Source of the DNA: an uncultured Bacteroidota bacterium
Lineage (GTDB): Bacteria > Bacteroidota > Bacteroidia > UKL13-3
Assembly: GCA_903901345.1 (NCBI GenBank)
Contig: CAIUQQ010000330.1
Coordinates: 1-55,110, forward strand
DNA length: 55,110 bases
Direction of reading: 5' to 3'
This document shows positions 17,083-41,421 of the stretch, piece after piece. Below the pieces are notes generated by a model. The model was not told the origin of the DNA. It did not search any database and was given only the letters and a program-made list of their open reading frames with translations. Each line of letters opens with the position of its first letter. Positions within the stretch are counted from its first letter, which is position 1. The position numbers and the translations under genes are program-made.

Positions 17083-17212
17083 GCCTGTAACGTTTTGCAG
17101 CTACCCGAAGGTGGCGATTTTACCACTGAACTTCATTCGGAGAACTACATTTCAAATATACAATAAACTGTCTTACGAAGAACGAATCCGCCACTTTTGG
17201 GTAGATGCTGTT
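17083..17212 (-). repeat. attC-like palindromic site, interrupted by the integrative element (its remaining end is at 39873-39885)
   Basis: TAAC-GTTTT-GCAGCTACCCGAAGGTGGCG...CGCCACTTTTGGGTAGATGC-T-GTT; arms nearly identical to 47059-47184. Confidence 0.85.
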
Positions 17213-17289
17213 GTCATAACCTCTCACCCTTTTTCTTTCTTTTGCTCCTAAACCCTTGTAAAATAAGGCTTTTATCATTTTTACTATCT

Positions 17290-17365
17290 TAATTTGGTGC
17301 AACAAAATGTAACGAAAAGCTTGTTTTGTTATACCTAATGTTGTACCTTTGTACTCTGTTGCACC
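17290..17365. repeat. Left-end integrase arm-type binding repeats
   Basis: GGTGCAACA (17296, inverted), TGTTATACCT (17327), TGTTGTACCT (17339), TGTTGCACC (17357); overlaps the -7 element TACCTTTG (17344-17351). Confidence 0.75.
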
Positions 17366-17394
17366 GCATTGCACAACCCTGTAAAATATTAGAT

Positions 17395-18612
17395 ATGGCA
17401 TCAATCAAATTAGTACTCCGAAATGATAAAGTAGGCAAAGATGGCGAAGCACCTTTGTACCTTAGACTTATCAAAGACCGCAAAACCAAATTCATTTCTT
17501 TAGGTGTTAGGTTAGTTCCAAATGAATGGGACGAAGATAAACAAAGAGTTAAAAAGAACCACTCAAATTCTGCAAGAATAAATGCACTACTGGCACAAAA
17601 GGTTGCAGAAGCTGAAGGGCAAGTTGCAGACCTTGAAAGAAAAAAATCACAGCCATCAGCAAAGAAGTTGAAGGAAGCCATCAAAGGTAAAGATGCAACC
17701 AACTTTTTTGAATACAGCTATGCAAGATGCGAAAAACAGAAAACAACATTATCACCTGCCACTTACCGCAATTACACCAAGTACATCAGTAAGTTTGAAA
17801 AATTTATGGGTACATCAGAAGTCTATTTTGAAGACATCAATGTAACCACCCTTAAAGATTTTGCAAACCATTGTTCCAAAACTTTGAGCAATAATAACAC
17901 TACAATTCACTACTCCTTAACCATCCTTTCCATTATGTTCAAGGATGCACAAAGAGAAGATATAATTCCTACCAGTTTGTACCCCTTTGATAAGTTCAGA
18001 GTAAAGAAAGAAAAGAGCAGCCGCAACTACTTAAACAAAGAGCAATTAGCAGCACTCGAAGCATTAGAAGTTTCGCAATTAGGCAAAGCACAAATTTGTA
18101 AGGATATGTTTTTGTTTGCTGTTTATGCAGGTGGTTTGAGATTTGGTGATGTAATAGAATTGCAATGGAAACATTTTTTAGCAGCAGACAATCGTATTTC
18201 TAAAGTTATCCGCAAAACAGGAAGGCAACACAGTTTTAAAATGGGAAGTGTGGCCATTGAAATACTTGATAAGTACAAGACAAAAAACAGTCAGCCCGAA
18301 GATTTTATTTTTCCAATAATGGAGTACAGCGATTTGTATTTCAAGGATAATTTTTTCAGGTCAAAAGAAACAGAACGCCACAATGCACTAACCAATTTTC
18401 ACCTCAATAATTTTGGAAAGACACTCAAACTTTCGTTTTCGTTGTCCTTTCATCTTAGCCGCCATACTTTTGCCACCAGAGCATTAAACAACGGAATGAG
18501 AATAGAACACGTTTCTAAATTGATGGACCATTCAGGCATAGGCATTACACAGGTATATGCAAAAATCATCAATGAAGAATTAGATAAAGCAGTGGATCAA
18601 TATTTAGGTTAA
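17395..18612 (+). CDS. Site-specific tyrosine integrase (Bacteroidota arm-binding + SAM-like + catalytic domains)
   Basis: N-terminal G.APLYLRL..DRK.KFISLG...P.EWD; catalytic R (GLRFGD), K (IRKTG), HLSRHTFA, MDH, TQVYA; ATG at 17395. Confidence 0.95.
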   Translation: MASIKLVLRNDKVGKDGEAPLYLRLIKDRKTKFISLGVRLVPNEWDEDKQRVKKNHSNSARINALLAQKVAEAEGQVADLERKKSQPSAKKLKEAIKGKDATNFFEYSYARCEKQKTTLSPATYRNYTKYISKFEKFMGTSEVYFEDINVTTLKDFANHCSKTLSNNNTTIHYSLTILSIMFKDAQREDIIPTSLYPFDKFRVKKEKSSRNYLNKEQLAALEALEVSQLGKAQICKDMFLFAVYAGGLRFGDVIELQWKHFLAADNRISKVIRKTGRQHSFKMGSVAIEILDKYKTKNSQPEDFIFPIMEYSDLYFKDNFFRSKETERHNALTNFHLNNFGKTLKLSFSLSFHLSRHTFATRALNNGMRIEHVSKLMDHSGIGITQVYAKIINEELDKAVDQYLG

Positions 18613-18635
18613 AATCATTATTTTTCGCTTTTTAA

Positions 18636-20540
18636 ATGGCAATAATTTCAGATAATAAAATAAACGCATACATCGACAAGCTGCTCAACTTCGTTGATGG
18701 CTTGCCTATGGGCGACAATGGCAAAGCATACATCAGAGCAAAATTATTAGTGGACTTTTTAGACACTTGGCAATTTGATGATGAAGCAAACAGCTTCACC
18801 CTTGAAGAATACCTTGCTAACCCCTCATATCCACGCTTTACAGATGTTCAAACCACCTATGGCATAAAGAACACCACACAAATTGAAAGGTGGTTAGAAG
18901 GCTTTAAAACAGCATTAAAAAAGGCAAGAGGAAAAGCATTAGAAAACCATTTGAAAGAGTTAGATAATTTGCACCCAGCCTTCAAAGCTGCAAGGCTTTC
19001 AAAAAGCCTGGCAGCCATTACCCGAGCAGAACTATTTGAGAAGCATAGTATCCAATCCATCAAAGACCCGGAATGGAACAACCAACTCAAAGAAATTTTA
19101 GGTACAGAAATTACCTTTTCAAAAGAGCAAGCCGACCTACTAACAAAAGCACCGAACCCCCACCAACAAACACCGGCAAGTGAGGATGAAATATTGATAG
19201 TAGAAGAACTTGAAAACCGTTTGGCAATTGAAGCTGTGGAGTATAAGCGAAAGGTTGATGAACTTTGGGAAACAAATAAATTTGACCCCACTTATTTCGA
19301 CAGCTTTATTTCTGGTCCTTTGCTTAACGAGTTTACCAAGTCCGTTTATGAAAGAATTAAGCCATTGAATAATCAGGTTATAAATCAGTACCTCAATTTA
19401 TCCCTGCAACAATTCAAAACCCATACACCACCCAAAAGACATAAAGCTTTTTTGCTTAACTATCATAATACTTATTGGTTCCCGAATGTGATGGAGTACA
19501 AAGAAAATGAGTATGATGCAAAATACGCCACCCACGTTTGGAAACATTACAGCAACCATTTTCATTTATTCAAAGAAGCATTTCAAAAAATTTATGATGA
19601 TTTTAAAACAGGGTTAGTAACAAATGCAGCACCATCAGCAACAACCAAAATCAAGGATGATAATTTCAATATTTTTATAAAGGCATTAGAATATAACTAC
19701 CCTCTGGAACATGCACCGTTAAGTTATTACTATCAATGGCGTGACAACCTTTCTTACCTCAAAAAAGAAGTGTTGAGCAACCTCATTCACTTAGAACAGG
19801 ATGCAAGAAAACCATACATCAACCGCCTAAAGTTTGAATTGAATGAAACATTGCAGCACTGCCATACAAGCCAAGAAGAATTAAATAACCTTTATACAAA
19901 ATACGAAACCAGTGAAGAAGAGTTGCTTCGCAATCGTTCTTACACCAATGCTTTGCACATTGCCATTAATGATGAACCACCAAAGTTTAAAGATACTTTT
20001 GAAGAAGGTTTTAACCCCGATACAGAGAACATTCAACACACCTTTTACAATTTCCATTATGGCAAAATAATTCTTTCAGCACTTGACTTTTTAAATGAAC
20101 AAGCCATTGAATATGGCTTTATTCAGAAAGAAGAAACACCTCCGCAACCCATCAAGAATAAGCCTTCGGCTTTATCTTTTCAATACATTAACCACAATAC
20201 AGGTTCGCAGAACCTTACCGACCTGATGAACTCATTAAAGCGTTCCGCTTTTATTCATCAAGACACATCACTTGCCAATTTCAGAAGTATATTTTCAGCA
20301 AAAGAAATTGAACAAAAAATCATCTGGACAGGCAACATTTCCGAATTGGTACACTTTATCAAAACCTTGCACAACACAGCCAAAAAGGTAGAAGATACCA
20401 AACAAAAGCAATGGGAAATAACAATAAACTGTTTTCAAATGGCTGATGGCACAGAATTAACCAGAGATAAATTAAGGCGTCAAAAGAATGATGATGTTGC
20501 TAAAGCTGCCATCATTGAAAAAGCGGTCAATATTCTCTGA
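18636..20540 (+). CDS. Hypothetical protein; C-terminus resembles DNA-binding regulators found between int and xis in Bacteroidota elements
   Basis: 634-aa ORF; C-terminal F..IF...KIIWTGNISELVHFI..L segment; position. Confidence 0.6.
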   Translation: MAIISDNKINAYIDKLLNFVDGLPMGDNGKAYIRAKLLVDFLDTWQFDDEANSFTLEEYLANPSYPRFTDVQTTYGIKNTTQIERWLEGFKTALKKARGKALENHLKELDNLHPAFKAARLSKSLAAITRAELFEKHSIQSIKDPEWNNQLKEILGTEITFSKEQADLLTKAPNPHQQTPASEDEILIVEELENRLAIEAVEYKRKVDELWETNKFDPTYFDSFISGPLLNEFTKSVYERIKPLNNQVINQYLNLSLQQFKTHTPPKRHKAFLLNYHNTYWFPNVMEYKENEYDAKYATHVWKHYSNHFHLFKEAFQKIYDDFKTGLVTNAAPSATTKIKDDNFNIFIKALEYNYPLEHAPLSYYYQWRDNLSYLKKEVLSNLIHLEQDARKPYINRLKFELNETLQHCHTSQEELNNLYTKYETSEEELLRNRSYTNALHIAINDEPPKFKDTFEEGFNPDTENIQHTFYNFHYGKIILSALDFLNEQAIEYGFIQKEETPPQPIKNKPSALSFQYINHNTGSQNLTDLMNSLKRSAFIHQDTSLANFRSIFSAKEIEQKIIWTGNISELVHFIKTLHNTAKKVEDTKQKQWEITINCFQMADGTELTRDKLRRQKNDDVAKAAIIEKAVNIL

Positions 20541-20545
20541 TTTGC

Positions 20546-20653: not shown

Positions 20654-20740
20654 AACCCTTGTCTGCAAAGGTTTTCAGCCCCTCTTTACTGCACAAATTT
20701 GCTTCCGAAATCATTCATAAACATTAAAAAATAAAAAGAA

Positions 20741-21025
20741 ATGGAAGCAGTAATCCTCACAAAAGACCAGTATCAGGAATTAGTTGTGCGAATGGACGAA
20801 ATTAAGTCCGCACTAACCGAAAAACAGAAAGAACCTAAAGATGTATTTCTTGACAATCAAGATTTCCTTCAACTGATGAACATCAGTAAACGAACCGCAC
20901 AATCTTGGCGTGACGAAGGCATTATTTCATTCTCTCAGGTAGGTTCAAAAATCTACTACCGAATGAGTGATGTGCAAAAGCTATTGGATAGTAATTACAA
21001 CCAAGCATTCAAAAAAAGAAAATGA
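20741..21025 (+). CDS. Helix-turn-helix excisionase-like protein (HTH_17/MerR-like)
   Basis: FLDNQDFLQLMNISKRTAQSWRDEG.I.FSQVGSKIYYR..DV. Confidence 0.92.
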   Translation: MEAVILTKDQYQELVVRMDEIKSALTEKQKEPKDVFLDNQDFLQLMNISKRTAQSWRDEGIISFSQVGSKIYYRMSDVQKLLDSNYNQAFKKRK

Positions 21026-21050
21026 GTATTAACCCTGTAAAGTTTAGAAA

Positions 21051-23105
21051 ATGTCCATCACAAAAGAAGCCATTTTGGATAAAATAACAAGCTATGATAT
21101 TTTAAACCATTATTTACAACCATACCACAACACAGGCAGATTAATAAGTGGTAAAAATATTAGCAACCCATTTATAGCACAAAAACAACAATCACCCAGT
21201 TTCAATATTTTTTGTGCATTGCCTCAACATGAGTGGAGATATAAAGATTTTGCCACAGGTGACGAAGGCAGTTGTTTTGATTGTGTAATGAAACTTTTTA
21301 ATGTTTCATTTCCCGAAGCATTGCAAATAATTAACCGTGACCATTGCCTTAACTTGGAAGCTACATTCAAAACAGTTCCACAACCAAAACAAGCACCACC
21401 GGAACAAACAAAGGCAAATTTTTCTGCAAAGAAAAGGCCATTCAGCGATGCTGAATTAACCTTTTGGAATAAGTACAATATTTCCATTGAAACCTTGCAA
21501 CGCTTCAATGTAGCAGCCTTAGAAGAATTTAGCAACATCAGTAAAGAAGGTAAACCATACACAGTTAAGAGCAGTTCCGAAAAATTCATTTTTGCTTATG
21601 ATAACGCCACTTGGTTAAAACTCTACAAACCGTTAGATGAAAAACAATACAAGTTTCAGTATTTAGGTAATAAAGAGCAGGGTTATATTTTTGGATGGAA
21701 GCAACTACCCGACAAAGGCGAAAAGCTATTTATTACAGGTGGTGAAAAAGATGTAATGAGTTTGGCTGCACAAGGTTTCAATGCTATTTCGCTTAACAGC
21801 GAAACCGCAACTTTAGAAAAGGCAATTGCTGATGAATTGAAACTTCGTTTCAATCACATCATTGTACTTTACGATAACGATGCAACAGGCTTGAAACAAT
21901 CAGAACTTTTAGCAATAACACATGGCTTTAATAAAATCACATTACCTACAATTCCGAATAACGGCAAAGACATTTCCGATTACTTCGCCTCAAGAGGCTC
22001 ATTATCGGCTTTTGATGAGTTGCTTTCAGCTTCGCTTCAAGCACCTCCACCCGAAGCACTAAACCCTGATAAGGTTGTGTTTAATGCAGTAGAATTAATG
22101 GCAATGGGAAACTTAGAACCTCAATACCTCATGTCTCCAATTTTGCCACAAAAAGGCACAGCAGTTTTAGCAGGGAAACCCGACACAGGTAAAAGCCAAT
22201 TTGCAAGGCAATTGTGTATTCAAGTTGCTTTAGGCTTAAAATCATTCATTGATTTTGACATTAATCCTATTCACAGCCGTTCTATTTATGTGGCTACTGA
22301 AGATAATTTAGAAAACACACGTTACTTAATGAGCAGGCAGATGAATGGCTTAAATCAAGGTCCAAAAGACAACCTGCGGTTCATCTTTGCCGATACTATG
22401 GAGCAAGAAGAAATACTGAAAGAATTGGACAACCAACTAACAATAGCAGCAGCCGATTTAGTGGTGGTAGATAGTTTTGGCGATATTTTCAAAGGAGGCG
22501 ACAGCAATAACAATATGGCAATGAGGAACACAGTAAAGACCTTTGATAAAATTGCCAAAAAACACAACTGCCTTATCTTGTTTGTTCACCACATCAACAA
22601 AGGAGCATACCGCCAAGCACCAGGACAAGAGCATATACAGGGTGGTGCAGGGCTAATGCAAAAGGTAAGATTAGGTATTCAGCTTTCTGAAGGTGACAAC
22701 AATACAAGATATTTCACAGTGGTAAAGGGCAACTATTGCCCAAAAGAATACAAGCAAAATTCTATCGTTTTAGATTTTTCAGAAGAAACATTTTTGTTTT
22801 CAAATACTGGTAAATTAATCCCCACATCAGAATTAGGAACACAGCCCAATGAAGATAAAAAGGAAGAAAAGTACAATGAGTTAGAAAATATTGCTCAGGA
22901 GATATTCGGTAACAAGTTAGTGACATACAGCAATTTTGTGAAGCATTTCTGTGAAATAACAGGCAAAAGCATCCCAACTGCAAAAAGAGCACACACAAAC
23001 CTTAAAAAGTTAGAAATTATTGTTGAAGCAAACGGCAGCTACAGATTAGTAAACCCAAGCAGCGACACATTCTCAGAAGATGAAGAAGATGAAAATTCAT
23101 TTTAG
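21051..23105 (+). CDS. TOPRIM primase fused to a RecA-like (AAA_25-type) helicase
   Basis: YKDFATG N-terminus; ITGGEKD and LYDNDATG...KDISDY TOPRIM motifs; Walker A AGKPDTGKS, Walker B LVVVDS, FVHHINK. Confidence 0.9.
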   Translation: MSITKEAILDKITSYDILNHYLQPYHNTGRLISGKNISNPFIAQKQQSPSFNIFCALPQHEWRYKDFATGDEGSCFDCVMKLFNVSFPEALQIINRDHCLNLEATFKTVPQPKQAPPEQTKANFSAKKRPFSDAELTFWNKYNISIETLQRFNVAALEEFSNISKEGKPYTVKSSSEKFIFAYDNATWLKLYKPLDEKQYKFQYLGNKEQGYIFGWKQLPDKGEKLFITGGEKDVMSLAAQGFNAISLNSETATLEKAIADELKLRFNHIIVLYDNDATGLKQSELLAITHGFNKITLPTIPNNGKDISDYFASRGSLSAFDELLSASLQAPPPEALNPDKVVFNAVELMAMGNLEPQYLMSPILPQKGTAVLAGKPDTGKSQFARQLCIQVALGLKSFIDFDINPIHSRSIYVATEDNLENTRYLMSRQMNGLNQGPKDNLRFIFADTMEQEEILKELDNQLTIAAADLVVVDSFGDIFKGGDSNNNMAMRNTVKTFDKIAKKHNCLILFVHHINKGAYRQAPGQEHIQGGAGLMQKVRLGIQLSEGDNNTRYFTVVKGNYCPKEYKQNSIVLDFSEETFLFSNTGKLIPTSELGTQPNEDKKEEKYNELENIAQEIFGNKLVTYSNFVKHFCEITGKSIPTAKRAHTNLKKLEIIVEANGSYRLVNPSSDTFSEDEEDENSF

Positions 23106-24775: not shown

Positions 24776-24850
24776 CAATTTCCCCTTTATCAAATTGCAC
24801 TTTTTTGCTTTTATTTGACTACTTTTGACAAGTCAAAATTAGTTGAATAC

Positions 24851-25135
24851 ATGAGCTTTGGTGAAACCATACGTAAACAAAGAGAGAGCAAGAAATTACT
24901 ACTTCGGCAAGCTGCTGCCTTTCTTGAAGTAGATACCGCCTTTGTAAGTAAACTCGAAAGAGGTGAACGCAATGCAAGCCGTGAACAGGTAATTAAATTA
25001 GCAGAGTTTCTTGATACACCTGCTGAACCTCTCATTACTATTTGGCTTGCAGATAAAATATCAGATACTATAAACGACAGCAAGGAGGGTGAAGAAGCCT
25101 TGAAACTTGTACTTAAAACCTATAAGAAAAAATGA
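24851..25135 (+). CDS. XRE-family HTH transcriptional regulator
   Basis: MSFGETIRKQRE.K.LLLRQAAAFLEVDTAFVSKLERGER; ATGA overlap with the next gene. Confidence 0.9.
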   Translation: MSFGETIRKQRESKKLLLRQAAAFLEVDTAFVSKLERGERNASREQVIKLAEFLDTPAEPLITIWLADKISDTINDSKEGEEALKLVLKTYKKK

Positions 25136-28056
25136 GCTTAACCCCATACCACGCCAAATATTTTGCTTATGAATTAACCAAACGCTATGCTGCAAACAGT
25201 TTGCAGAAGTTCACCGCTTCGCTTGCCGATGCACAGGTTGATTTAAACCCCCATCAGGTAGATGCTGCATTGTTTGCTTTTCATTCGCCATTGTCAAAAG
25301 GGGCATTATTGGCAGATGAAGTAGGATTGGGTAAAACCATTGAAGCAGGAATTGTTATTTCTCAAAAATGGGCTGAACGCAAACGCAAAATTTTAATTAT
25401 AGCACCTGCCAACCTCCGAAAGCAGTGGAACCAGGAAATTGCAGATAAATTCTTTTTACCATCCGTAATTCTCGAAGCAAAGTCATTCAATCAAGAAATT
25501 GCCAAAGCCAATTTCAATCCTTTCAATCAAACCGATAACATTGTTATTTGCTCATACCAGTTCATAAAGAGCAAAGCCATTTATGTTACAAAAGTAGATT
25601 GGGACTTAGTGGTAATTGATGAAGCACACCGTTTGCGGAATGTTTACAAAACCACCAATAAAATTGCTAAAGCAATTAAAGAAGCTGTTGCCCATGCTCC
25701 AAAGATTTTGCTAACGGCTACGCCATTGCAAAACTCTTTGTTGGAGTTATACGGCTTAGTGAGCATCATTGATGAATATGCTTTTGGAGATTTAAAAAGT
25801 TTCAAAACACAATACACCAGAATTACAGAAAATACCAGCTTTGACGACCTCAAACGCAGGTTAGAACCTATTTGCAAAAGAACATTAAGAAGACAAGTTT
25901 TAGAATACATCAACTACACAAATAGATCCTGCATATTGCAGGAATTTACCCCTCGTGATGACGAAAAGCAGTTGTATGATTTAGTTTCCGATTACTTACA
26001 AAGACCCAATTTGTATGCCTTACCTCCCGGACAGCGTACTTTAATGACTTTGATACTTCGCAAGTTGTTGGCTTCATCTACTTATGCTATTTCAGGCACA
26101 TTGCAAGGCTTGGCAGATAAATTGGAAGCAACCATTGAACGACAAAGCGGACTGCCTGTAAACGTAGATGAAATATTTACCACCAATTACGAAACTTTTG
26201 AAGAACAACAAGACGAGTGGCTTGATGATGATGAAGATAGTGACAGCACAAACGGTAAGGAAGAAAAGGTTTACACACCAGATGAAATAGCTGAAATACG
26301 CCAAGAAATTGATGCTTTAAATGAGTTTAAAAAATTAGCCCAATCCATCAAGGTAAATTCAAAAGGAGAAGTTTTATTTACGGCATTAACCAAAGGTTTT
26401 GAAAAGCTACAAGAACTTGGTGCAAACAAAAAAGCCATCATTTTTACAGAGAGTACCCGAACACAGGAATACCTTAAAAACATTTTAGAAGCAAGAGGTT
26501 ACAAAGATGAAATTGTGTTGTTCAATGGAAGCAACAACGACCCCAAAAGCGGACAAATTTATACAGCTTGGCTTAAAACACACGAAGGCACAGATAGAAT
26601 TACAGGTTCAAGAACGGCTGATAAAAGGGCTGCATTAGTTGATTACTTCCGTGATACTGCAACCATTATGATTGCCACCGAAGCAGCAGCAGAAGGCATC
26701 AATTTACAGTTCTGTTCATTGGTAGTAAACTATGACTTGCCCTGGAACCCACAACGTATTGAACAGCGAATTGGCCGTTGCCATCGTTATGGACAAAAGT
26801 TTGATGTGGTAGTAGTCAATTTCCTAAACAATACCAATGCAGCCGACCAAAGAGTGTATCAATTGTTAGATGAAAAATTCCAATTGTTTAATGGTGTATT
26901 TGGTGCAAGTGATGAAGTATTAGGAGCAATTGAAAGCGGTGTTGATTTTGAAAAACGAATTGTAAAAATCTACCAAACTTGCAGAACAACCGAAGCCATC
27001 CAGTTAGCTTTTGACTTTTTACAGAAGGAAATGGAACCCGAAATTGAACAGGGCATTGACCTTACACGTAAAAAACTATTGGAAAACTTTGATGAAGAAG
27101 TACACGAAAAACTGAAAATCAATTTACAACAAAGCACCGATTACCTTACCAAATTTGAGAATTGGTTGTGGCAGCTTACCAAATATTTTTTAGAACCTTA
27201 TGCCACATTCAACCATTCCGAAAACAGCTTCTTCCTCAATAAAAATCCATTTGCAGGTGAGGCAATTCATAAAGGACCATACAGAGTAGGCAAAAAGCAT
27301 ATTGGTGAAGCACACGAAACCGTTGAAGTAAATCAAAACGAAAACCTTTACCGTATTGGGCATCCATTGGCACAAAAGGTAATTAGCAATTGTAAAGAAG
27401 AAAAATTAGATATACAGGAATTGCAGTTTGATTATTCCATCAGCGATAAAAAAATATTCATTCTCGAAAACTTGGTAGGTAAGCAAGGTTGGTTACAAGC
27501 CAAAGAAATTACTATCTCCAGTTTTGAAAACGAAGACCATATTTTGTTTGCCGCTTTTGATGATGAAGGTAATACTCTTGAACCCGACCAATGCCAACGG
27601 TTGTTTTCACTTCCTGCTAAAGCAGTAAAGACAACGCTTTCATTCAGCGATGCTGAAAAGACAAAGTGTAAAGAAATATACCACACACATCAATTGGGTA
27701 TCATTGAAGAAAACCGCAAACGCAACCACAACTTTTTTGATGAAGAAGTAGATAAGTTAGAAAAGTGGAGTGAAGATGTACGTAACAGCATCAAGTATGA
27801 AATAAAGGAATTGGATAAGGAAATTAAAACTAAAAAAACAGAAGCCCGAAAGTTGCTCAACTTAGAGCAGAAAGTAAAGGAACAACGGATTATAAAAGAC
27901 TTGGAAAAGAAATTAGCAGAAAAGCGATACAACCAATATCAGAACGAAGATGATATTGAAAACCGAAAAGATAAATTGTTGGATGAAGTAGAACAGCGAT
28001 TGAAACAACAAACAACAGAATTGGATTTATTCACCATAAGATTTAAAGTAATTTAA
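25132..28056 (+). CDS. SNF2-family helicase/ATPase associated with type III RM
   Basis: LLADEVGLGKT, IDEAH, LTATPLQN, EGINLQ, YDLPWNPQRIEQRIGRCHRYGQ; C-terminal coiled coil. Confidence 0.93.
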   Translation: MSLTPYHAKYFAYELTKRYAANSLQKFTASLADAQVDLNPHQVDAALFAFHSPLSKGALLADEVGLGKTIEAGIVISQKWAERKRKILIIAPANLRKQWNQEIADKFFLPSVILEAKSFNQEIAKANFNPFNQTDNIVICSYQFIKSKAIYVTKVDWDLVVIDEAHRLRNVYKTTNKIAKAIKEAVAHAPKILLTATPLQNSLLELYGLVSIIDEYAFGDLKSFKTQYTRITENTSFDDLKRRLEPICKRTLRRQVLEYINYTNRSCILQEFTPRDDEKQLYDLVSDYLQRPNLYALPPGQRTLMTLILRKLLASSTYAISGTLQGLADKLEATIERQSGLPVNVDEIFTTNYETFEEQQDEWLDDDEDSDSTNGKEEKVYTPDEIAEIRQEIDALNEFKKLAQSIKVNSKGEVLFTALTKGFEKLQELGANKKAIIFTESTRTQEYLKNILEARGYKDEIVLFNGSNNDPKSGQIYTAWLKTHEGTDRITGSRTADKRAALVDYFRDTATIMIATEAAAEGINLQFCSLVVNYDLPWNPQRIEQRIGRCHRYGQKFDVVVVNFLNNTNAADQRVYQLLDEKFQLFNGVFGASDEVLGAIESGVDFEKRIVKIYQTCRTTEAIQLAFDFLQKEMEPEIEQGIDLTRKKLLENFDEEVHEKLKINLQQSTDYLTKFENWLWQLTKYFLEPYATFNHSENSFFLNKNPFAGEAIHKGPYRVGKKHIGEAHETVEVNQNENLYRIGHPLAQKVISNCKEEKLDIQELQFDYSISDKKIFILENLVGKQGWLQAKEITISSFENEDHILFAAFDDEGNTLEPDQCQRLFSLPAKAVKTTLSFSDAEKTKCKEIYHTHQLGIIEENRKRNHNFFDEEVDKLEKWSEDVRNSIKYEIKELDKEIKTKKTEARKLLNLEQKVKEQRIIKDLEKKLAEKRYNQYQNEDDIENRKDKLLDEVEQRLKQQTTELDLFTIRFKVI

Positions 28057-28058
28057 CT

Positions 28059-29750: not shown

Positions 29751-29791
29751 ACAAACTTTTAGATAAAGTTTAGATAAACAAAGCATTCGAC

Positions 29792-31450: not shown

Positions 31451-31470
31451 TCCAATAAGCAGCAAATAAT

Positions 31471-34146
31471 ATGAACCAAATAGCAGAAAATATAAAGCAA
31501 CGTTTATCGCTTCGCAAACCCTTACAAGAGGCGTTGGATAAACTCACTCAGCTTGCAGCAGAGTTGGAGTTATCCAAAGAAGTTGACCTTAAAGCTGAAC
31601 TGGAAAAAGTGCAAGCACTTTACCCCACTTGCAGCGATTTTGAGCGAGAGTTTCCATCCATTTGTTTCAGCATTGCCACAGGTGTAGGTAAAACCCGTTT
31701 GATGGGTGCTTGCATTGCTTACTTGTATTTAGAAAAAGGCATCAAGAACTTTTTTGTATTAGCCCCAAACCTTACTATTTACAACAAACTCATAGAAGAT
31801 TTTGGCAATAGCAGCAATCCAAAATATGTATTCAATGGCATTGCCGATTTTGTACACAATAAGCCTGTTATCATTACAGGCGATAATTACAATCAGGTAA
31901 GTTCACTATTCAGCGAAACAGAAATCAGGATCAACATTTTCAATGTTTCCAAATTTGCAAGAGAAACCAAGCCAGTTATAGAAGGTGGCCGTAATATGGC
32001 CCCTCGTATCAAAAGGCTTTCAGAATATTTAGGGCAAAGCTATTGGGAATATCTAAGTGGCTTAAATGACTTGGTAATTTTAATGGACGAAGCTCACCGC
32101 TACCATGCCGATAAAAGTAAAGTTGCCATCAACGAATTACAACCCATTTTAGGTATTGAATTAACTGCAACACCTATTGACGAAAAAAGCAATCAGTTCA
32201 GAAATGTGGTGTATGAATACAGTTTGGCTCAGGCACTCACAGATGGCTTGTTTGTAAAGAACCCAACCATTGCCAAGCGAAGAGATTTTAGCCCCAACGG
32301 TAGAAGCATTGAAGAAATAGAAAAGATAAAATTAGAAGATGCAGTTAGTATTCACGAGGACACCAAGCAGGAATTAAAACTCTATGCTTTAAACACAGGC
32401 AAAAGATTGGTAAAGCCTTTTATATTGGTTGTTTGCAGAGATACCACACATGCAAAATCAGTATATGACCTTGTTTCTTCCAACGATTTTTATGAAGGAG
32501 CATTTGCCAATAAAGTATTACAAATTGATAGCACCACCCGAAACGAAGAATTAATTGAGCAACAATTTATTTCCTTAGAACATGAAGACAACGAAATAGA
32601 AATTGTAATCCATGTAAACATGCTCAAAGAAGGTTGGGATGTAACCAACCTTTACACCATCGTTCCATTAAGGGCTGCCAATGCTTCCATATTGGTAGAA
32701 CAAACCATTGGTAGAGGTTTGCGTTTGCCATTTAGCGGAGAAAGAACAGGAAATGAGAAAGTAGATAAATTAACCGTTGTAGCACATGATAATTTCGATA
32801 CGGTAATTGCAGCAGCCCAAGACCCAAATTCTATTCTAAACAAACTTAAATTCATTGAAATAGATGAAGAGCAGTTAAAGCAAAGAGTAGAAGTTGTTAC
32901 AGTTCAAAATACCATTCAGCAAAACATACAGAAAGAACAGGAAGAAGTAAATAAAATAGTTGAACCAGCACAAAAGCAAAAACAGCAAAATATAGTTGAT
33001 GCAAAAAAAGTGTTGGTAAATGTTATTCCGTTTTTCAATACCAATTCGCAGGTTAAAAAAGTAGATGACCTGATGAAGCCCGAAGTAAGAGCACAGGTAA
33101 TGGAAGCGGTAAACAAAGAACTCAATTCAGGGCAAGGTAATTTATTTGCAGTAAGCATAGCAGCCGAAGCAGAAGTGATGTATGAAAAATTAGTTGCCGA
33201 TTTCAAAAAGAACATCATCGAAATTCCACGTATGGACTTGGTGCAAGGTGAAGTAACAGCCAGCTTTGAGGATTTCGATTTAAACAGCACAGATTTCACT
33301 TATGACCAACTCAATGAGGAAATAGTAAGGATTGGCCTCAAAGACCGTAAAATGGACATTATAGAGGTTAAAAAAGGGGTGTATTATGGCAAACCAGAGA
33401 AGCTATTAATATCCGAACTAATCAACTTCTCAGAGATTGACTATGATACCAATGCCGACCTATTACACAAGTTGGCAAAACAAGCCATTGCAGAACTACT
33501 AACCAATTTAAAAGACGGTGAAGACCTCAATACATTAGTGTTTCAGTGGCGTGGAGCAATAGCAAATAAAATGTACCATCAAATGATGGAACATTTCAAA
33601 CTCCACGAACCCGATTACATCAAGCCCAATGTAAAACCCTTCACCAAGATAGAAGATTGGAATTTCACTACCCTAAAAAACGAAGGACGAAAAGATTACA
33701 GAGATGATAGTTTCCCGGCAGTGCAAGTTCCTAAATACGTTTTCATAGGCTTTGAAAAATCTTGCCACTTCGAGTATAAGTTTGACAGCAGAACAGAACA
33801 AATACTTGCCATGATATTAGAAAACGACAAGGAAGTAATGAAATGGCTAAGACCAGCACCAAACCAATTCCGTATCTATTGGCATCACAACAGTAAAATT
33901 TACGAACCCGATTTTGTAGTAGAAACAGCAGATTGCATTTACCTAATTGAAACCAAAAGAGCAGACGAAATACCAAGCAACGAAGTACAGGCAAAAGCAC
34001 AAGCAGCCTTAAAATACTGCAACTACGCAACCGAATACACAGCAGAATTTGGCGGTAAACAATGGAAATATGTATTAATCCCTCATGACCAGGTTAGTAA
34101 GACAAATAGTTTTAAGGGAGTGGTATCAAATAATATTTATAAGTAG
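31471..34146 (+). CDS. res: Type III RM restriction subunit (Res)
   Basis: ATGVGKT, MDEAH, LTATP, LKEGWD, EQTIGRGLR; C-terminal YEPDFVV...LIETK (PD-(D/E)xK). Confidence 0.92.
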   Translation: MNQIAENIKQRLSLRKPLQEALDKLTQLAAELELSKEVDLKAELEKVQALYPTCSDFEREFPSICFSIATGVGKTRLMGACIAYLYLEKGIKNFFVLAPNLTIYNKLIEDFGNSSNPKYVFNGIADFVHNKPVIITGDNYNQVSSLFSETEIRINIFNVSKFARETKPVIEGGRNMAPRIKRLSEYLGQSYWEYLSGLNDLVILMDEAHRYHADKSKVAINELQPILGIELTATPIDEKSNQFRNVVYEYSLAQALTDGLFVKNPTIAKRRDFSPNGRSIEEIEKIKLEDAVSIHEDTKQELKLYALNTGKRLVKPFILVVCRDTTHAKSVYDLVSSNDFYEGAFANKVLQIDSTTRNEELIEQQFISLEHEDNEIEIVIHVNMLKEGWDVTNLYTIVPLRAANASILVEQTIGRGLRLPFSGERTGNEKVDKLTVVAHDNFDTVIAAAQDPNSILNKLKFIEIDEEQLKQRVEVVTVQNTIQQNIQKEQEEVNKIVEPAQKQKQQNIVDAKKVLVNVIPFFNTNSQVKKVDDLMKPEVRAQVMEAVNKELNSGQGNLFAVSIAAEAEVMYEKLVADFKKNIIEIPRMDLVQGEVTASFEDFDLNSTDFTYDQLNEEIVRIGLKDRKMDIIEVKKGVYYGKPEKLLISELINFSEIDYDTNADLLHKLAKQAIAELLTNLKDGEDLNTLVFQWRGAIANKMYHQMMEHFKLHEPDYIKPNVKPFTKIEDWNFTTLKNEGRKDYRDDSFPAVQVPKYVFIGFEKSCHFEYKFDSRTEQILAMILENDKEVMKWLRPAPNQFRIYWHHNSKIYEPDFVVETADCIYLIETKRADEIPSNEVQAKAQAALKYCNYATEYTAEFGGKQWKYVLIPHDQVSKTNSFKGVVSNNIYK

Positions 34147-34164
34147 AAACCATAAAATAGTATC

Positions 34165-34674
34165 ATGAATTATTTAGGTATAAATTGTAGTGTAGAGAAA
34201 GGTTTTGGAAGAGTTATCATTGTTATTCTTAATAGTGAAAATGAAGTATTTCGTCATGTTTTTAGAAGCCCATCTGTTTTTTCTTTCAATAAAAATTCTG
34301 CTGAAATTTTGAATTGGCATAGAGATAATATAACATCATTAATAAGTCAGTTCAACATTGAAGGTGTTGTTGTAAAGAAGACGGAAAGAAATTCCTTTGT
34401 ATCAAGAATTAAAAACTCAGGTATTTTTAAACTTTATTTAGAAGGCGTAATACTTTCCCTTGCAGGTAGCATTGGTAAACTAAATAAACATTTTTATAAA
34501 ACAGACATACAAGCAATACTTCCTACTCCGAATGTTTTCGATTTAGATATTGAAACCATTTGCGAACAAAACGGACTAACAAATTCATTTACAGAAATTC
34601 CAAACTCAGAGATTGAACCTACTAAAGAGGCTTTACTTGCAGTTATATCACTAAAAACAATCGTACAAGCATGA
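34165..34674 (+). CDS. Hypothetical protein, possible RNase H/RuvC-like fold
   Basis: N-terminal YLGIN beta strand, helix, EGVVVK strand, LYLEGVI helix; ATGA overlap with the kinase gene. Confidence 0.55.
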   Translation: MNYLGINCSVEKGFGRVIIVILNSENEVFRHVFRSPSVFSFNKNSAEILNWHRDNITSLISQFNIEGVVVKKTERNSFVSRIKNSGIFKLYLEGVILSLAGSIGKLNKHFYKTDIQAILPTPNVFDLDIETICEQNGLTNSFTEIPNSEIEPTKEALLAVISLKTIVQA

Positions 34675-35810
34675 TTAATACTATCGTAGAAATTGAACAT
34701 CAAGCAGATTTTGAAGAACAAGGCTTTTACTCTAAATCATATTTGGCTTTAGACAAGAGATTAAATAGACATGTTGCAGTAAAAGACATCATATATGAAA
34801 ATCTTACCTCAGATGATGATTTCGGTAAATACTTTGAGGAGGCATATAAACTATCAATGGCATCACACCCCCGTGTATTACCTGTTTATTATGTTGGGAT
34901 AGACCATAATGGTGGCGAAGAAACTATACCTAGAATAGTCACTTGTTTTTTTAAGAAAGGTTCCTTGAATAGTTATTTACAATCCATTTATGCATCTAAT
35001 AAATCAATGGCGTTAGATGAAATAATTAGATATGCTCACGACATTATCCAAGGCATGATACACCTTCATGCATTAGACATCGTTCATTTGGATTTAAAAG
35101 CTTCAAATATTTACATTGGCGATGATGGTAAAATGGTACTTGGTGATTTTGGTCAAGCAAAATTTATTAAAGATGGCATCATACATGAGCATGTAGATTT
35201 ATACCCTGCTTTAGCTCCAGTAGAGGCCGTAGCAAAAAAAGCATTTGATAAAACAACAGATATTTATCAGTTTGGCCTTTTATTATATTCAATGGTATGC
35301 TATACAAAATACCGTGATACAATTGAAAATACATATAAGATAAGCACTCCACAATTAAAAGTAATCTTCAGAGAAAAACCTGCTAATGTTGCTGACCTGA
35401 AATCAGAGTTTAAAGCAAATATGAAATTGTTTAATGAAGCAATAAAAACTTCAAATTTTCCAAACAGAGCAGATTATCCATACTATGTGCCTAAAAAAAT
35501 ACAAGATGTCATTCATAAATGCTTAGAGCCAGTAGTTGCAAATCGTTACAATAATTTCTATGAAATACAAGCAGACTTAAATGAGTTTGTTTTTCCAAAG
35601 GGTGTTTCAGAGTATTACCAAGATTTAGTAACAAATAATATACACTTTAAGAAAGAAGAAAAAATGTGTGTAATTTCAATTGTTCCTTCAGGTGCTAAAT
35701 TTGATTTAAGTGCAACTAAAAATGGACGAAATGTTGCTAAGTGTACTAAACCAAATATATCTCAAGCAAAGCTCCAGAAAATATTGCTTACATTTGCAGA
35801 GGAAATATGA
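34671..35810 (+). CDS. Hanks-type Ser/Thr protein kinase
   Basis: VAVK, EEA, IVHLDLKASN, GDFG, APVE, DIYQFG, CL.P....RY. Confidence 0.9.
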   Translation: MINTIVEIEHQADFEEQGFYSKSYLALDKRLNRHVAVKDIIYENLTSDDDFGKYFEEAYKLSMASHPRVLPVYYVGIDHNGGEETIPRIVTCFFKKGSLNSYLQSIYASNKSMALDEIIRYAHDIIQGMIHLHALDIVHLDLKASNIYIGDDGKMVLGDFGQAKFIKDGIIHEHVDLYPALAPVEAVAKKAFDKTTDIYQFGLLLYSMVCYTKYRDTIENTYKISTPQLKVIFREKPANVADLKSEFKANMKLFNEAIKTSNFPNRADYPYYVPKKIQDVIHKCLEPVVANRYNNFYEIQADLNEFVFPKGVSEYYQDLVTNNIHFKKEEKMCVISIVPSGAKFDLSATKNGRNVAKCTKPNISQAKLQKILLTFAEEI

Positions 35811-36022
35811 AGCAATTTCATTGTAAATATTGTAATAGACCGATGGCAGTTTCCTCTTTGGAATATCGTTCAAATTCTTATTGTAATAAGTGTTTTGACG
35901 AAAGAGCCGCCAGCAAACCCGTAGCAAAGAGTAGCTTGAATACTTTTGAATTTATGGGTGAGGTTATTCCCATGTCCAATGCCAACAGTATTACTAAACC
36001 TTATAAGAAAAGTCATTTTTAG
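35807..36022 (+). CDS. Small zinc-ribbon protein
   Basis: CKYC...CNKC; ATGA overlap with the kinase stop. Confidence 0.65.
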   Translation: MKQFHCKYCNRPMAVSSLEYRSNSYCNKCFDERAASKPVAKSSLNTFEFMGEVIPMSNANSITKPYKKSHF

Positions 36023-36101
36023 GGCATTCCCTTTCAGGTCGGGCTTTCCGCTACAATCTTTTGCGAAAAGCAAAAGGATTTCCACTTCAATCCCTAATGC
36101 A
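36021..36101 (+). ncRNA. Structured element resembling the Flavo-1 RNA motif
   Basis: GGGCATT...GGTCGGGCTTTCCGCTACAATCTTTTGC-GAAAA-GCAAAAGGATTTCCACTTCAATCCCTAATGC; nested stems visible; family name from memory of the consensus. Confidence 0.6.
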
Positions 36102-37362
36102 AAAAGAAGCGGTGTTCGTTCCTCACTTGTAGTTTGATACACCCCCCCCAGCCAACCGCACAGAAATACGGCTTAGTGCTTTGCAACCGCACAAGGCAAA
36201 CCCTTCAAAGCACTCTATGGTATTGCAGTCAGTTTTTAACTGTCATACTTTTTGTGTGGGGTGTTGCCAACCCATACAGCACATTGCTATCCTCATTCCG
36301 CTAAAGCTCCATTGCGGTAGCAAAGAGCTGTGCCACCACACCACCCCAAACAAAAAGACATTTCACTCCAACCACCACCACCGTTCCATTTATGCCAGTA
36401 TAAAAACTGCCTGAAGCTAAATAACATAATGTGGCATTATATTACTTTTTCTCCCCTGCTTATGCAAGCATCCAACCGCACAAAAAGTCATATAATAACA
36501 TTATGTTAAATAGCCAATACCATAGCCATTTTGATAAAATGGAAGCCGTATTTCTTGCCAACCCACACCCCCCGAAACCACGCACCCCATCCACCCTTTT
36601 CAGCGGTGCAGGAAAAAATAAAGCATAAGTTGTTTTATTGCCAATGTGCATTCGGTAGCTTCATTCATTCGTGTCCATTCCGTTTCAGCGTTTCGTTCAT
36701 TCCGCTTTGCTCCAATCTCTACACTACCTTCCACTTCATTACCACTCATTTCATTTCAGCAACCTCGATGCACCGCACAGCAAGCGTGGCTCATTCACTT
36801 CACTTCACAATACCCAAGCAGTATTCCATTCCCAACGCAATTGTTTCGTTCTGTTCAATCACCACACTTGCTTTTTCCAACCGCACTTAACTTTTGGTAT
36901 GCTTTATTTTTTCCTGCGACTTGTTAGCCCCATTCCAACGCACTGTATACATCTTAATTATCACTATAAGAATAAGAAAATACAACAAACATTTTGAATA
37001 CAATTATTGATTAGAATTTGAAATACTGAATACATTTTGAAATAACGAAAAGGAAAAAAATAAAAATAAAAAGTGCAGCAAAATTAGGTGGCTCACACAA
37101 GCCCACGCTGATTTAAAAACCAAAAGACTACGGCATAATGAAAGGCAAATAATCTATTTATTTTTTAATAGGTATTTGCCTTTCACCCTTCGGGACTTAT
37201 TCCGTTTCCTTTTGGTTTTTAAGCCTCGCCACCTATGCAAGTGCTTTCTTTTTTTTTCTGTTTTTTTTCTTTGTCAAAAATTTTATTGGTGTTGTGCGAA
37301 GCGTAGCGAAGCACAGTACAGGCAAGGGGCAGAAGCAGATACAAACTTTAAAAGCAAGTATT

Positions 37363-37785
37363 ATGCACAGTCCAAAAATTCACACATTCAACCCAAAAAA
37401 TCCAGTATGCGATTTTAGCGTTTTCATTCTCTGTAAAGGATTAAACAGCGGAAAACCACTCGAAAAGCCTTGTCCCAATTGCTTTGTAATAGCTTGTAAA
37501 AATGCCGATGAAATGGATTTTTACAAAACCCTTGCATTTGGATTATGGAAGGCAAAGCATTTTCATCAGTTCCTTGTTGGTTCTGTTATTCCATTCATCC
37601 GAATTGATGATTTTAAAAGCACCATCAAAACCCAAGCGGAAGAAGTCAGTAAAAATAAATTGGCTTTTGCTACCGATGTGCAAAAAGTGAAGCTGATTGA
37701 ACGCAAAGAAAAACAGATGTACGAAACATTAGCATTATTAGCCGATGTAAAAAGGGCAATGATGCACCGGTATTTCAAAAGGTAG
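37363..37785 (+). CDS. Conserved Bacteroidota mobile-element protein (DUF6943-like from recollection)
   Basis: FILCKGLNSGKPL..PCPNCFV...L.GSVIPFIRI; ATG at 37363. Confidence 0.7.
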   Translation: MHSPKIHTFNPKNPVCDFSVFILCKGLNSGKPLEKPCPNCFVIACKNADEMDFYKTLAFGLWKAKHFHQFLVGSVIPFIRIDDFKSTIKTQAEEVSKNKLAFATDVQKVKLIERKEKQMYETLALLADVKRAMMHRYFKR

Positions 37786-37998
37786 CCGTAATGGCTGCCA
37801 TAAACTGGGGAAATGCTTTTGCACCATAAAAAATTTATATGCAAAGATAGCAAGGGGGGCAACCGCACAAAGCCGACATTAAAAAACCCAAAAGACTACG
37901 GCATAAACACAGACCCACCGCACAAGGCTCTCATTTATTCCGTTTCCTTTTGGTTTTTTTATCCCCCTTGCAGAGAGAAGCATATAAATTATTTCATT

Positions 37999-38232
37999 AT
38001 GCAAAATCATCCACGTATTTCAGCAGGCAGCCAGTCAGGCATTTGCCTTTTCACTCCGCAGGTTCTCCATCAGCACTTGCAGCTTTCACCTTATGCTTAT
38101 CAGCGTTATATCCGCAGGTCATCGTTAGCCCATCAGCCAGTTTTTGGCATCAAGGTTTATCGGCTTCCTTGTGGTTGTTTCGTTTGGTGCTATCCATCAG
38201 GTGTTCGTGAGCTTTCAGCATTGCCCTTTTAG
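37999..38232 (+). CDS. Possible small protein (77 aa) ending in LPF
   Basis: ATG at 37999 after an AT-rich leader and a hairpin shared with the region upstream of 37363. Confidence 0.35.
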   Translation: MQNHPRISAGSQSGICLFTPQVLHQHLQLSPYAYQRYIRRSSLAHQPVFGIKVYRLPCGCFVWCYPSGVRELSALPF

Positions 38233-38318
38233 GGCTTTGTTGTTCTCCTTTCGACCATAAACCCACCATAAGGATAGGGTAAAGGCAATATGATTGCCAT
38301 CATAGTTAAAATTGATGC

Positions 38319-38348
38319 AAAAAGAAAAACCCCACCGATTTGGTGAGG
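38319..38348 (-). terminator. Intrinsic terminator of 38379..39185
   Basis: Minus strand CCTCACC-AAATC-GGTGGGG followed by TTTTTCTTTTT. Confidence 0.6.
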
Positions 38349-38378
38349 CTTCCTTTTTTCGATAACCCTGTAAAGTTA

Positions 38379-39185
38379 TTAGAAAATGTCTTGTACTTTC
38401 AAAGAATTACCTGAATTGAACAAGTAGTAGTTTACACCAACTTGTTGATAGAACTCAATACCAATGCAATTCAAAACACTCACATCAGCAGTCATAACAG
38501 GAGAACCTGGCAATGTACTTGTGATGGTGGTTGGCAATGCTACTGGAGTACCTAAGTCAATGTAATTTGAATAAGCAACATTTGAAAGCTCATTTAATGA
38601 AGGATCAATAGGCTCATAAATTCCAGAAGTGGAGTTGAACTCAAAATCCGAAATAACTGAAATTGCACTAATCAATCTGAAGTGAGTGGCACCAGCAGGT
38701 GCATTCACAAAATTAAGCGGATTGAAAGCAGGTACAGTTAAAGTTGCACTATCACGAGCAGGTGTATTTGTAAGCGTATAAGGAGCATAAAAAATACTAT
38801 CCAAGCTGATGTTCTTGTCAAAGTTTAATCCAGTTAAGTACTGTCTTTGAGTTGAAACCAAAATGGCTCTGTAACCCCTTGCTTCGGTTAAGTCTTCCAA
38901 ATTGATTTTTTTCATGATAGCCGTTAAACGGCCTGTAAGCTGCGGGTCACTCATTTGTTTCATCAATTGAGCTAATCCAACACGAACAGATTTTCCAGCT
39001 GAAGCACAGCCACCAAACTCATTCATGTTTTCCCTAGTTCTTTCAAACTCTGGTGCAGTTTTTACTTGTTCACCTGTTGGTCCTCCAACTAAGCCAGCGA
39101 AGTGGCCTTGTAAACCTTTGATTTTAAAGTGGCGAATATCGCCCAATGTTCCTTTGTACTTTAATGGTCCTGATTGACGTGCCAT
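38379..39185 (-). CDS. Conserved Bacteroidota hypothetical protein
   Basis: MARQ.G..K.KGTLG...F, PEFERTRENMNEFG....AGK..R, P.GATHF, GIEFYQ..G...Y: a family pattern I recognise in Bacteroidota, function unknown. Confidence 0.75.
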   Translation of the reverse strand: MARQSGPLKYKGTLGDIRHFKIKGLQGHFAGLVGGPTGEQVKTAPEFERTRENMNEFGGCASAGKSVRVGLAQLMKQMSDPQLTGRLTAIMKKINLEDLTEARGYRAILVSTQRQYLTGLNFDKNISLDSIFYAPYTLTNTPARDSATLTVPAFNPLNFVNAPAGATHFRLISAISVISDFEFNSTSGIYEPIDPSLNELSNVAYSNYIDLGTPVALPTTITSTLPGSPVMTADVSVLNCIGIEFYQQVGVNYYLFNSGNSLKVQDIF

Positions 39186-39279
39186 AATGTTATTTTTTTA
39201 AATGTTTTTTAGTAATAAAATTTAGTGTAAATTTACGCCATAACTTATTGACTATCAACTATTAAAGTAGTGCAAAACA

Positions 39280-39771
39280 ATGTATATAAACGTAAAAGAA
39301 CAGACAATTATAAAAACACACCTAAAAGTTGCCAAAGTGGTGGATGGAGATGGAATAATTGTATCCAATTTATTCAACAAGCAAGAAGAGGAAATTAGAC
39401 TTTTGGGGATTGATGCACCGGAATTAAGAATGTGCAATAAATTGAAACAGGACGAAAGAGAAACCCATATTGCAGGGCAGTTATTAATGGAGCTTGGCAG
39501 AAAGGCTCAAAAATTTATGATTAGTGTTATACCACCCGAAACAAATATCACTTTAGTACAAGAGGAGCAGAGCCAAATTGATGCTTATGGTAGAACCCTT
39601 GCTTATGTATATTTGCCTGATGGGAGTTGCTTAAATGAAATAATGATTGCAGAAGGCTTTGCGAAGCCCTACAATCGCTTTTTTTGCTCAGAACTACCAA
39701 AGTATCAAGAATTGAGCAATACCGCTAAAATCAAGCAAAAAGGGCTATTTTCGATAGTCCAAAACTGGTAA
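39280..39771 (+). CDS. Thermonuclease (SNase) family protein
   Basis: KVVDGDG, IRLLGIDAPE, DAYGRTLAYVY, LNE.MI.EGFA, AK..QKGLF; no signal peptide. Confidence 0.92.
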   Translation: MYINVKEQTIIKTHLKVAKVVDGDGIIVSNLFNKQEEEIRLLGIDAPELRMCNKLKQDERETHIAGQLLMELGRKAQKFMISVIPPETNITLVQEEQSQIDAYGRTLAYVYLPDGSCLNEIMIAEGFAKPYNRFFCSELPKYQELSNTAKIKQKGLFSIVQNW

Positions 39772-39788
39772 AAATTTAAGTTCTGAAA

Positions 39789-39885
39789 TGTTGTACCTAT
39801 GTTGTACCTAATTTGGTATAACATTTACAAAATATTGTATTTCAATACATTATAAAGCTACTTGCGACAAGCTGCTGTTAGGTGT
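39789..39885. repeat. Right attachment region of the element plus the remaining end of the split attC-like site
   Basis: TGTTGTACCT x2 (39789, 39800), TAATTTGGTATAACA (39809), core-type TTGCGACAA, TGCTGTT repeat, GTTAGGTGT (39877-39885). Confidence 0.8.
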
Positions 39886-41409: not shown

Positions 41410-41421
41410 GTTGCTAATTTA

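Follow-up and report, generated by a model that had tools for sequence, protein, structure and literature searches.

The integrase systems of NBU1 (IntN1) and CTnDOT (IntDOT) combine an arm-binding tyrosine integrase with a small excision protein, a primase encoded beside the integrase and a 7-bp overlap, and IntDOT tolerates a mismatch in this overlap. Their targets are transfer RNA (tRNA) 3′ ends or loosely conserved chromosomal sites. Integron attC sites are entered by elements of two other kinds. According to passages in two reports (PMC3001079; PMC11187229), the IS1111-attC insertion sequences (ISPa21, ISPst6, ISKpn4) target one end of attC, near the 5′ end, and lie antisense to cassette transcription, while group IIC-attC introns (e.g. 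S.ma.I2) insert between the cassette gene and its attC, likewise in antisense (PMC3001079). Here we describe a 22,667-bp integrative element (positions 17213–39879) in a 55,110-bp stretch of DNA from an uncultured Bacteroidota bacterium (GTDB lineage Bacteria; Bacteroidota; Bacteroidia; UKL13-3; assembly GCA_903901345.1, contig CAIUQQ010000330.1). The stretch, hereafter the window, is the source contig in full and comes from a fragmented genome of 414 contigs; its T9SS-type proteins also point to a Bacteroidota. We consider it highly probable that the element is a site-specific island whose Bacteroidota-type integrase uses the duplex, gene-proximal R″/L″ end of attC-like sites as its attB. As far as the passages cited above go, IS1111-attC elements and group IIC-attC introns insert at the same place and in the same orientation.

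The island resembles NBU1 and CTnDOT in the traits named at the outset. It differs from them in its target, an attC-like box, and in that no mobilisation protein was detected. Nor does it lie beside a tRNA, as NBU-type elements do: none was found in the 55-kb window. From IS1111-attC elements, which measure 1–2 kb and rely on a DEDD transposase guided by a seekRNA, it is set apart by its tyrosine integrase, its arm and core sites and its size class (15–30 kb). Group IIC-attC introns are retroelements that home into the single-stranded bottom strand, whereas the island has no reverse transcriptase; a Pfam search of the element returned neither a DEDD transposase nor a reverse transcriptase domain. 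We found no published description of attC-targeting tyrosine-integrase islands, or of the flavobacterial arrays in which they sit, in full-text searches of largely open-access literature.

The element is bounded by the direct repeat TGCTGTT (17206–17212 and 39873–39879). Read directly on the plus strand, the attL core (17204–17219) consists of the overlap GATGCTG (17204–17210), the repeat and the element's core arm TTGTCATAA (17211–17219), and the attR core (39862–39879) of the core arm TTGCGACAA (39862–39870), the overlap GCTGCTG (39871–39877) and the repeat. The two core arms are inverted and complementary at seven of nine positions, and the two overlaps differ at a single base. The attL layout recurs in homologous elements. 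A motif scan located clusters of the arm-type repeat TGTT(G/A)(T/C)ACC at 17296–17365, a cluster that is conserved upstream of homologous integrases, and at 39789–39823. Exact copies of TGTTGTACC occur three times in the window, all at the element ends (17339, 39789 and 39800), with one-mismatch copies beside them (17296, 17327, 17357 and 39815); the count of the arm motif over the whole window is not unusual (21 versus 12.5 expected, a value reached by 2 of 100 shuffles). This combination of arm repeats at each end with inverted core arms that flank a 7-bp overlap is the layout of arm-binding integrase elements. The preliminary description of this locus had listed the repeats, the inverted core, the spacers with one mismatch and the arm repeats, and the sequence confirms all of them. 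The integrase gene (17395–18612, plus strand) is single-copy in the source genome and encodes 405 amino acids with Arm-DNA-bind_5, SAM_5 and Phage_integrase domains, each above its cut-off (PF17293, 76.9 bits; PF13102, 63.8 bits; PF00589, 70.3 bits). The protein aligns with XerD over residues 238–399, and its strings GGLRFGD, HLSRH and TQVYAKI fit the catalytic R...HxxR...H...Y pattern, by eye only.

The left flank of the element (17079–17212) belongs to a family of imperfect palindromes of ~125–145 nt, and the interrupted member is ~135 nt long. We built a repeat model from 13 copies of the source genome and searched with nhmmer, which gave 27 matches in that genome at E up to 1. Many of these sit at the ends of contigs, probably a sign that the assembly breaks at the repeats. 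All matches in the window are on the plus strand: the major part of the site cut by the element (17079–17212; model positions 2–135, 102.2 bits), a second site at 42638–42780 (82.1 bits), a half site at 46341–46397 (model positions 88–144) and a further full site at 47051–47191 (122.8 bits). The remaining end of the cut site, AGGTGT..., lies just beyond the element (39880–39888, plus strand) and is the reverse complement of 42642–42647. When 17212 is joined to 39880 in silico, the model match grows from positions 2–135 to 2–144 and from 102.2 to 109.7 bits, and the restored end GTT+AGGTGT is the reverse complement of ACACCTAAC (42642–42650), the start of the next site 2.8 kb rightward. The earlier proposal that removing the element rebuilds a full site whose end matches the start of its neighbour is thus upheld. 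The cassette that owns the interrupted site carries three genes (39906–42588, minus strand; open reading frames (ORFs) with no family matches). A metagenome scan for an empty site of the same cassette, made with its gene 39906–40310, gave no relative; relatives share the housekeeping gene left of the element and not this cassette junction. Rfam at gathering thresholds gave zero matches to the attC-like sites.

Taken alone, the 7-bp direct repeat would be at chance level. The insertion stands above chance on three grounds: the repeat family, the longer model match of the rebuilt site and the integrase homologues. We tabulated the surroundings of 80 loci, the best 80 of 207 confirmed integrase relatives (57–99% identity); the relatives that share this target are spread across the Flavobacteriia. 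The model trained on the source genome alone found an abutting site in 23 of them; these sites end 183–236 bp ahead of the start of the integrase gene, on the same strand as that gene, and are cut near model positions 135–140. By eye, the remaining loci have, at the corresponding place, palindromes that belong to other sequence families. Four further family models were built from the abutting sequences, and the five models together placed an attC-like site against the element in 72 of the 80 loci, with the insertion point and the orientation unchanged. As a rule these sites are members of arrays: further upstream copies are present in 48 of the 80 loci (up to 12 more), and all 231 merged site matches lie on the integrase strand, with none downstream of the integrase start in up to 10 kb there. 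The support that is free of circularity is the 23 loci found with the own-genome model, the upstream array copies, the strand uniformity and the absence of matches downstream of the integrase start. One relative with a 99%-identical integrase (L032) occupies a different site, in a four-site array.

Among the loci with no abutting match, two (L033 and L034) have the element's right end preceding the left end, one (L110) has only 211 bp of upstream sequence and, by eye, one shows another palindrome family (L077) and one a half site (L104). The other three (L037, L050 and L096) abut what looks by eye like ordinary coding DNA, ending in a short look-alike of the core. These three insertions, together with the insignificance of the 7-bp repeat on its own, are what one would expect of an integrase loosely specific for a short GTT-containing motif, with the present insertion a coincidence. 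With 72 of 80 homologues at the same position and on the same strand of attC-like sites from five sequence families, we regard that explanation as having practically no likelihood. The preliminary description had named insertion of homologues at unrelated sites as grounds for abandoning its proposal; the tabulation did not bear this out, and unrelated targets proved rare.

A nearly invariant abutting site of one family, tenB, was seen in several marine genera (L062–L064, L070, L079, L080 and G049; E 1e–30 to 1e–43). At these loci no other site lies in the 10 kb upstream, so that solitary attC-like sites still serve as targets; at L064 the tenB site follows the apparent end of a coding gene. 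The site in G049 is not part of the element, because an attR is seen there as well. We also examined 20 more distant homologues (L142–L161), drawn from the next best in 300 further genomes of the class (25–40% identity). None of the 20 has an attC-like site upstream, and the attC-like target therefore marks the clade of at least 57% identity. ARAGORN found a tRNA at one of the 20 and Rfam at two. The distant groups suggest that sister clades target tRNA-like or transfer-messenger RNA-like sites. By eye, about nine of the 35–40% group have an upstream terminator-like hairpin followed by a conserved GTGATCCCGCTGGGA-like string, and the 27–33% group shows T-arm-like strings, which are not established.

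Whole elements in relatives have the same construction. In two complete chromosome records (L051 and L058) the element interrupts long arrays, with 8 sites upstream and with 31 or 20 sites within 60 kb of downstream sequence. In three of four elements tested, attR was located through the complement of the next site's start, a join that restores complementarity; the attR of G046 was not found by exact complementarity, and two further attR junctions were found directly. The related elements measure 14.7, 16.7, 21.5, 27.2 and 29.7 kb, have direct repeats of 6–10 bp that always end in GTT, and carry ..ACAA-N7-TTGT.. or ATATAA-N7-TTATAT cores at their ends. As in the window element, the attL and attR overlaps of one of them (G044) differ at one base. 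Moreover, attP-type junctions are present in three other assemblies. One has a perfect TTGTGACAA-GGTGCTG-TTGTCACAA core (G042:C123), another lies on G043:C314, and an IMG/VR contig (G051) opens with 127 nt of right end joined to the left end, then traverses the element as far as attR, where a different attC-like site adjoins. The attP-type junction of L112 shows a perfect 9-7-9 core. Junctions of this type point to circles or to copies in tandem. We also compared Logan contigs of four sequencing runs over 16900–17600. In all three non-source runs, contigs join the left end of the element to an attC-like arm, of which they share the last 14–19 nt, but the interior of the site is a different one (for example, contigs of 4,146 bp in X3 and of 728 bp in X2). 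Together with the L032 insertion, these contigs favour the earlier suggestion that cassette sites serve as a multi-copy target.

A passage in one report states that IntegronFinder reports almost no integrons in Bacteroidetes (PMC9024848), and part of a 2024 preprint places Bacteroidota among the clades earlier found without integrons (10.1101/2024.07.02.601686); a review lists Bacteroidota among the integron-bearing phyla (PMC8618304). In relatives of the source organism, from the same genus up to the same class, we found arrays with a site spacing of 0.7–0.9 kb. RNAalifold of 14 source-genome sites gave 17 stem pairs, 9 of them with compensatory double changes. Several stem pairs are G-T on the plus strand of the window (one of them in 14 of 14 sites), and this wobble marks the plus strand as the one selected for folding. 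The plus strand also folds better than the minus strand, and better than shuffles at two sites (z –2.3 and –3.5). In 145 intervals between sites beside homologous elements, the longest ORF runs opposite to the site plus orientation in 100 and along it in 4, with 41 unclear. Of 140 pairs of neighbouring boundary boxes (the 7 nucleotides after GTT versus the 7 before AAC of the next site), 42 are complementary at six or more of the seven positions, and the mean match is 3.1 versus 1.9 for shuffled partners (best of 200 shuffles, 2.2). The sites and arrays thus show the hallmarks of cassette arrays, with the coding strand as top strand and the other strand folding. Like integron attC sites, they are imperfect palindromes with AAC/GTT ends and one strand selected for folding, and the units between them are co-oriented single-gene cassettes with complementary boundary boxes. 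They differ from integrons in their length of ~125–145 nt, in an asymmetric spacer of 5 against 1 nt, and in a recombinase that is Xer-like, co-directional with the cassettes and without the IntI insertion. A comparison of cassettes shared between arrays, meant to place the cassette crossover, yielded only 5 shared stretches, whose ends fall in the conserved arms and so give no position for it.

No IntI passing the TIGR02249 cut-off was found in the 41 relatives or in the source genome. However, 19 of the 41 genomes have an ORF that matches TIGR02249 at E 1e–30 or better, in open frames of 331 to 520 amino acids. Two full recombinase proteins (345 and 437 amino acids) score 211 and 225 bits against the cut-off of 265, and one of them passes NF040815, ‘tyrosine recombinase/integron integrase’. 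Aligned with IntI4 of V. cholerae (2a3v), the latter has 17 residues where IntI4 has 59, so that the array recombinase lacks the greater part of the IntI-specific insertion; among solved structures, archaeal XerA proteins match it best. We inspected 16 recombinase loci, 3 of which have too little downstream DNA to judge. In 9 of the 13 informative loci, attC-like sites follow downstream, co-directional with the recombinase gene, and start ~0.8–1.4 kb away where read. In these loci the recombinase is upstream of the cassettes and points the same way, not divergently as an intI would. Array-preceding XerA-like recombinases (~345 amino acids) were seen at L117, L118, L119, L167–L171 and L173, with no equivalent found in the window. 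A candidate canonical IntI at C9:7736–7831 was rejected, as it matches only a 32-residue fragment in a 34-amino-acid frame. The XerA-like recombinase and the arrays together look like an integron-like system with a non-canonical integrase. We accordingly speak of ‘attC-like’ sites, the term of the preliminary description, and of ‘integron-like’ rather than canonical arrays, since the recombinase lacks the IntI-specific insertion.

The same observations bear on the view that the palindromes are a REP-like (repetitive extragenic palindromic) or terminator-like extragenic repeat rather than cassette sites, and that the island simply targets a repeated palindrome. In its favour, none of the 41 relatives has a recombinase passing the integron-integrase cut-off, the adjacent recombinase lacks the IntI insertion and the source genome shows no such gene. 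An extragenic repeat would leave unexplained the one co-oriented gene per unit (100 versus 4), a boundary-box complementarity far above shuffles, and the Xer-like recombinase directly upstream and co-directional in 9 of the 13 informative loci. We therefore judge it very improbable.

Read in the direction of the cassettes, the element lies 26 bp past the stop codon of gene 39906–40310. It lies between the R″-like box and the rest of the site, with the integrase gene antisense to the cassettes. Since the cassette genes are on the opposite strand and the plus strand of the window folds, the insertion is at the gene-proximal R″/L″ end, which is the end opposite to the presumed cassette crossover of an integron integrase. 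The preliminary description was right about the target, an attC-like site; the insertion point is to be placed at the gene-proximal end, antisense to the cassettes, and not at the presumed crossover. This position also speaks against the idea that the 22.7 kb are a giant cassette moved by the array's own recombinase, to which the location in an array beside a boundary box might point. The element has no attC-like site of its own (none of the four matches in the window lies inside it), and it carries its own integrase, arm repeats and core. Its being a giant cassette is hardly credible.

A subtler alternative keeps the element and the target and supposes that the integrase recognises the folded single-stranded hairpin, as integron integrases do. 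The selection of the sites for hairpin pairing and the folding of the plus strand beyond shuffles at the two sites tested are consistent with this. However, three relatives have only a half site abutting the element (L101 and L106 as partial model matches, L104 by eye), and the three insertions into DNA without a palindrome preserve no more than the short core. The attP, moreover, has a classical 9-7-9 duplex core with arm repeats, and direct repeats of 7–10 bp fit a duplex overlap. The half sites and the three non-palindromic secondary sites suggest that the duplex sequence is recognised rather than the hairpin, and we hold hairpin recognition to be quite unlikely.

Several points weigh against our reading of a site-specific island at the gene-proximal end. 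How the sites are oriented was deduced from the direction of the genes, the asymmetry of the wobbles and the place of the recombinase, and not from a mapped crossover. The 80 loci are all from species-representative genomes, many being metagenome bins, and 49 of the 72 adjacency calls are partly circular, as the models were trained on abutting sequences. A plain palindrome score separates poorly: controls reach 13, while many true sites score 8–12. Logan contigs of the source sample contain no circle or empty-site junction, although these contigs break inside the repeat (17137–17166), so this is not evidence of absence. Finally, no relaxase or type IV secretion families were found in Pfam (19 ORFs) or in NCBIfam and PHROGs (protein subsets), with several proteins left without assignment.

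The further genes described here are also on the plus strand. Beside the integrase lies a 634-amino-acid protein (18636–20540) with no family assigned: it has zero matches in Pfam, NCBIfam, PHROG and PADLOC, and the Atlas gives hypothetical clusters only, while tblastn pieces in 25 related loci show that it is partly conserved beside the integrase. An HTH_17 excisionase-like protein (20741–21025; Pfam and PHROG excisionase families) is a backbone gene, present in 79 related loci with 73–100% identity in the 14 best listed. It is followed by a primase-helicase with Toprim_2 and AAA_25 domains (21051–23105; Pfam, PHROG DNA primase/helicase). The anti-phage defence cargo (24815–35810; PADLOC, Pfam) comprises an HTH_3 regulator, a DrmD-like SNF2 helicase, a Schlafen/AlbA_2 protein, a Type III methylase, a Type III restriction enzyme, a 169-amino-acid ORF and a Ser/Thr kinase, with PADLOC scores of 696 bits for DrmD, 573 for MTase_III, 541 for REase_III and 125 for the mad6-like kinase. 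A Flavo-1 RNA motif lies on the minus strand (36033–36105; RF01705, 63.8 bits versus a gathering score of 42); since it overlaps the 90-amino-acid ORF 35870–36142, the latter is probably not a gene. A DUF6943 protein (37294–37785; Pfam) is conserved near the right end of related elements (tblastn, 8 related loci), and a staphylococcal-nuclease-like protein (39280–39771; Pfam) is the last gene of the element. Three IMG/VR contigs (L138/G051, L137 and L139) encode this integrase family, from which it follows that islands of this kind are taken for viral by pipelines. CheckV gives G051 a completeness of 57%, although the element shows no structural phage genes in the families searched.

From the observed anatomy, the target specificity across relatives and the attP-type junctions, we infer the following course of integration. 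The N-terminal arm-binding domain of the integrase would bind the arm-type repeats TGTTGTACC, and the protein would also contact the inverted core arms (..ACAA / TTGT..) around the 7-bp overlap. The overlap probably imitates the G(G/A)TGCTG that is conserved in the site ahead of a TT, and strands would be exchanged there with one mismatch tolerated. The conserved HTH_17 protein is the likely excision factor, and the primase-helicase suggests that the excised circle may be replicated. With the island inserted, the cassette gene is parted from its site, which should prevent that cassette from moving. Since every array offers many copies of the conserved box, the family would have a multi-copy, non-essential landing pad.

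The surroundings of the element hold further features of the array. Four cassette ORFs (16456–16863 and within 43323–46351, minus strand) have the C-terminal sorting domains of type IX secretion (Por_Secre_tail), so that secreted or surface proteins seem to be what the arrays stock. On the minus strand, 47329–54289 encodes an OLD/Gabija-like ATPase-nuclease together with a complete Type I restriction-modification system (hsdS, hsdM, hsdR), directly before the site 47051–47191 in the cassette direction; the stretch could be either a 7-kb defence cassette or a neighbouring island. At its distal end, between the first cassette and a housekeeping methyltransferase gene, the array has a short repeat (16252–16330) of which related genomes hold several copies each at 85–100% identity (e.g. 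three on G018:C80). Downstream of an NMN transporter gene, a perfect 26-nt inverted repeat with a 5-nt loop (14847–14903), inside an 87-amino-acid ORF (14745–15008), is probably a terminator.

Whereas attC sites are known as targets of small parasites, the IS1111-attC elements and group IIC-attC introns, the island adds a third, unrelated machinery: a tyrosine integrase that moves 15–30 kb defence islands lands at the same site end and in the same orientation. That unrelated machineries share end and orientation suggests a general reason why this spot is safe or accessible. Cut attC-like sites also offer a search route for such islands, and the family is a natural multi-copy integration system for the genetics of Flavobacteriia. 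Tentatively, and with slightly less than an even chance of being right, we suggest that Flavobacteriia and their relatives possess a separate, largely unrecorded integron-like branch, with large arrays (20 to >30 sites in 60 kb) run by a XerA-like recombinase without the IntI domain, and that a clade of defence-island integrases left another ancestral target (perhaps tRNA-like) for the gene-proximal box, converging with IS1111-attC elements and group IIC-attC introns. Overall, our results indicate extensive cassette arrays in a phylum to which, in the passages available from integron surveys (PMC9024848; 10.1101/2024.07.02.601686), almost none are ascribed.

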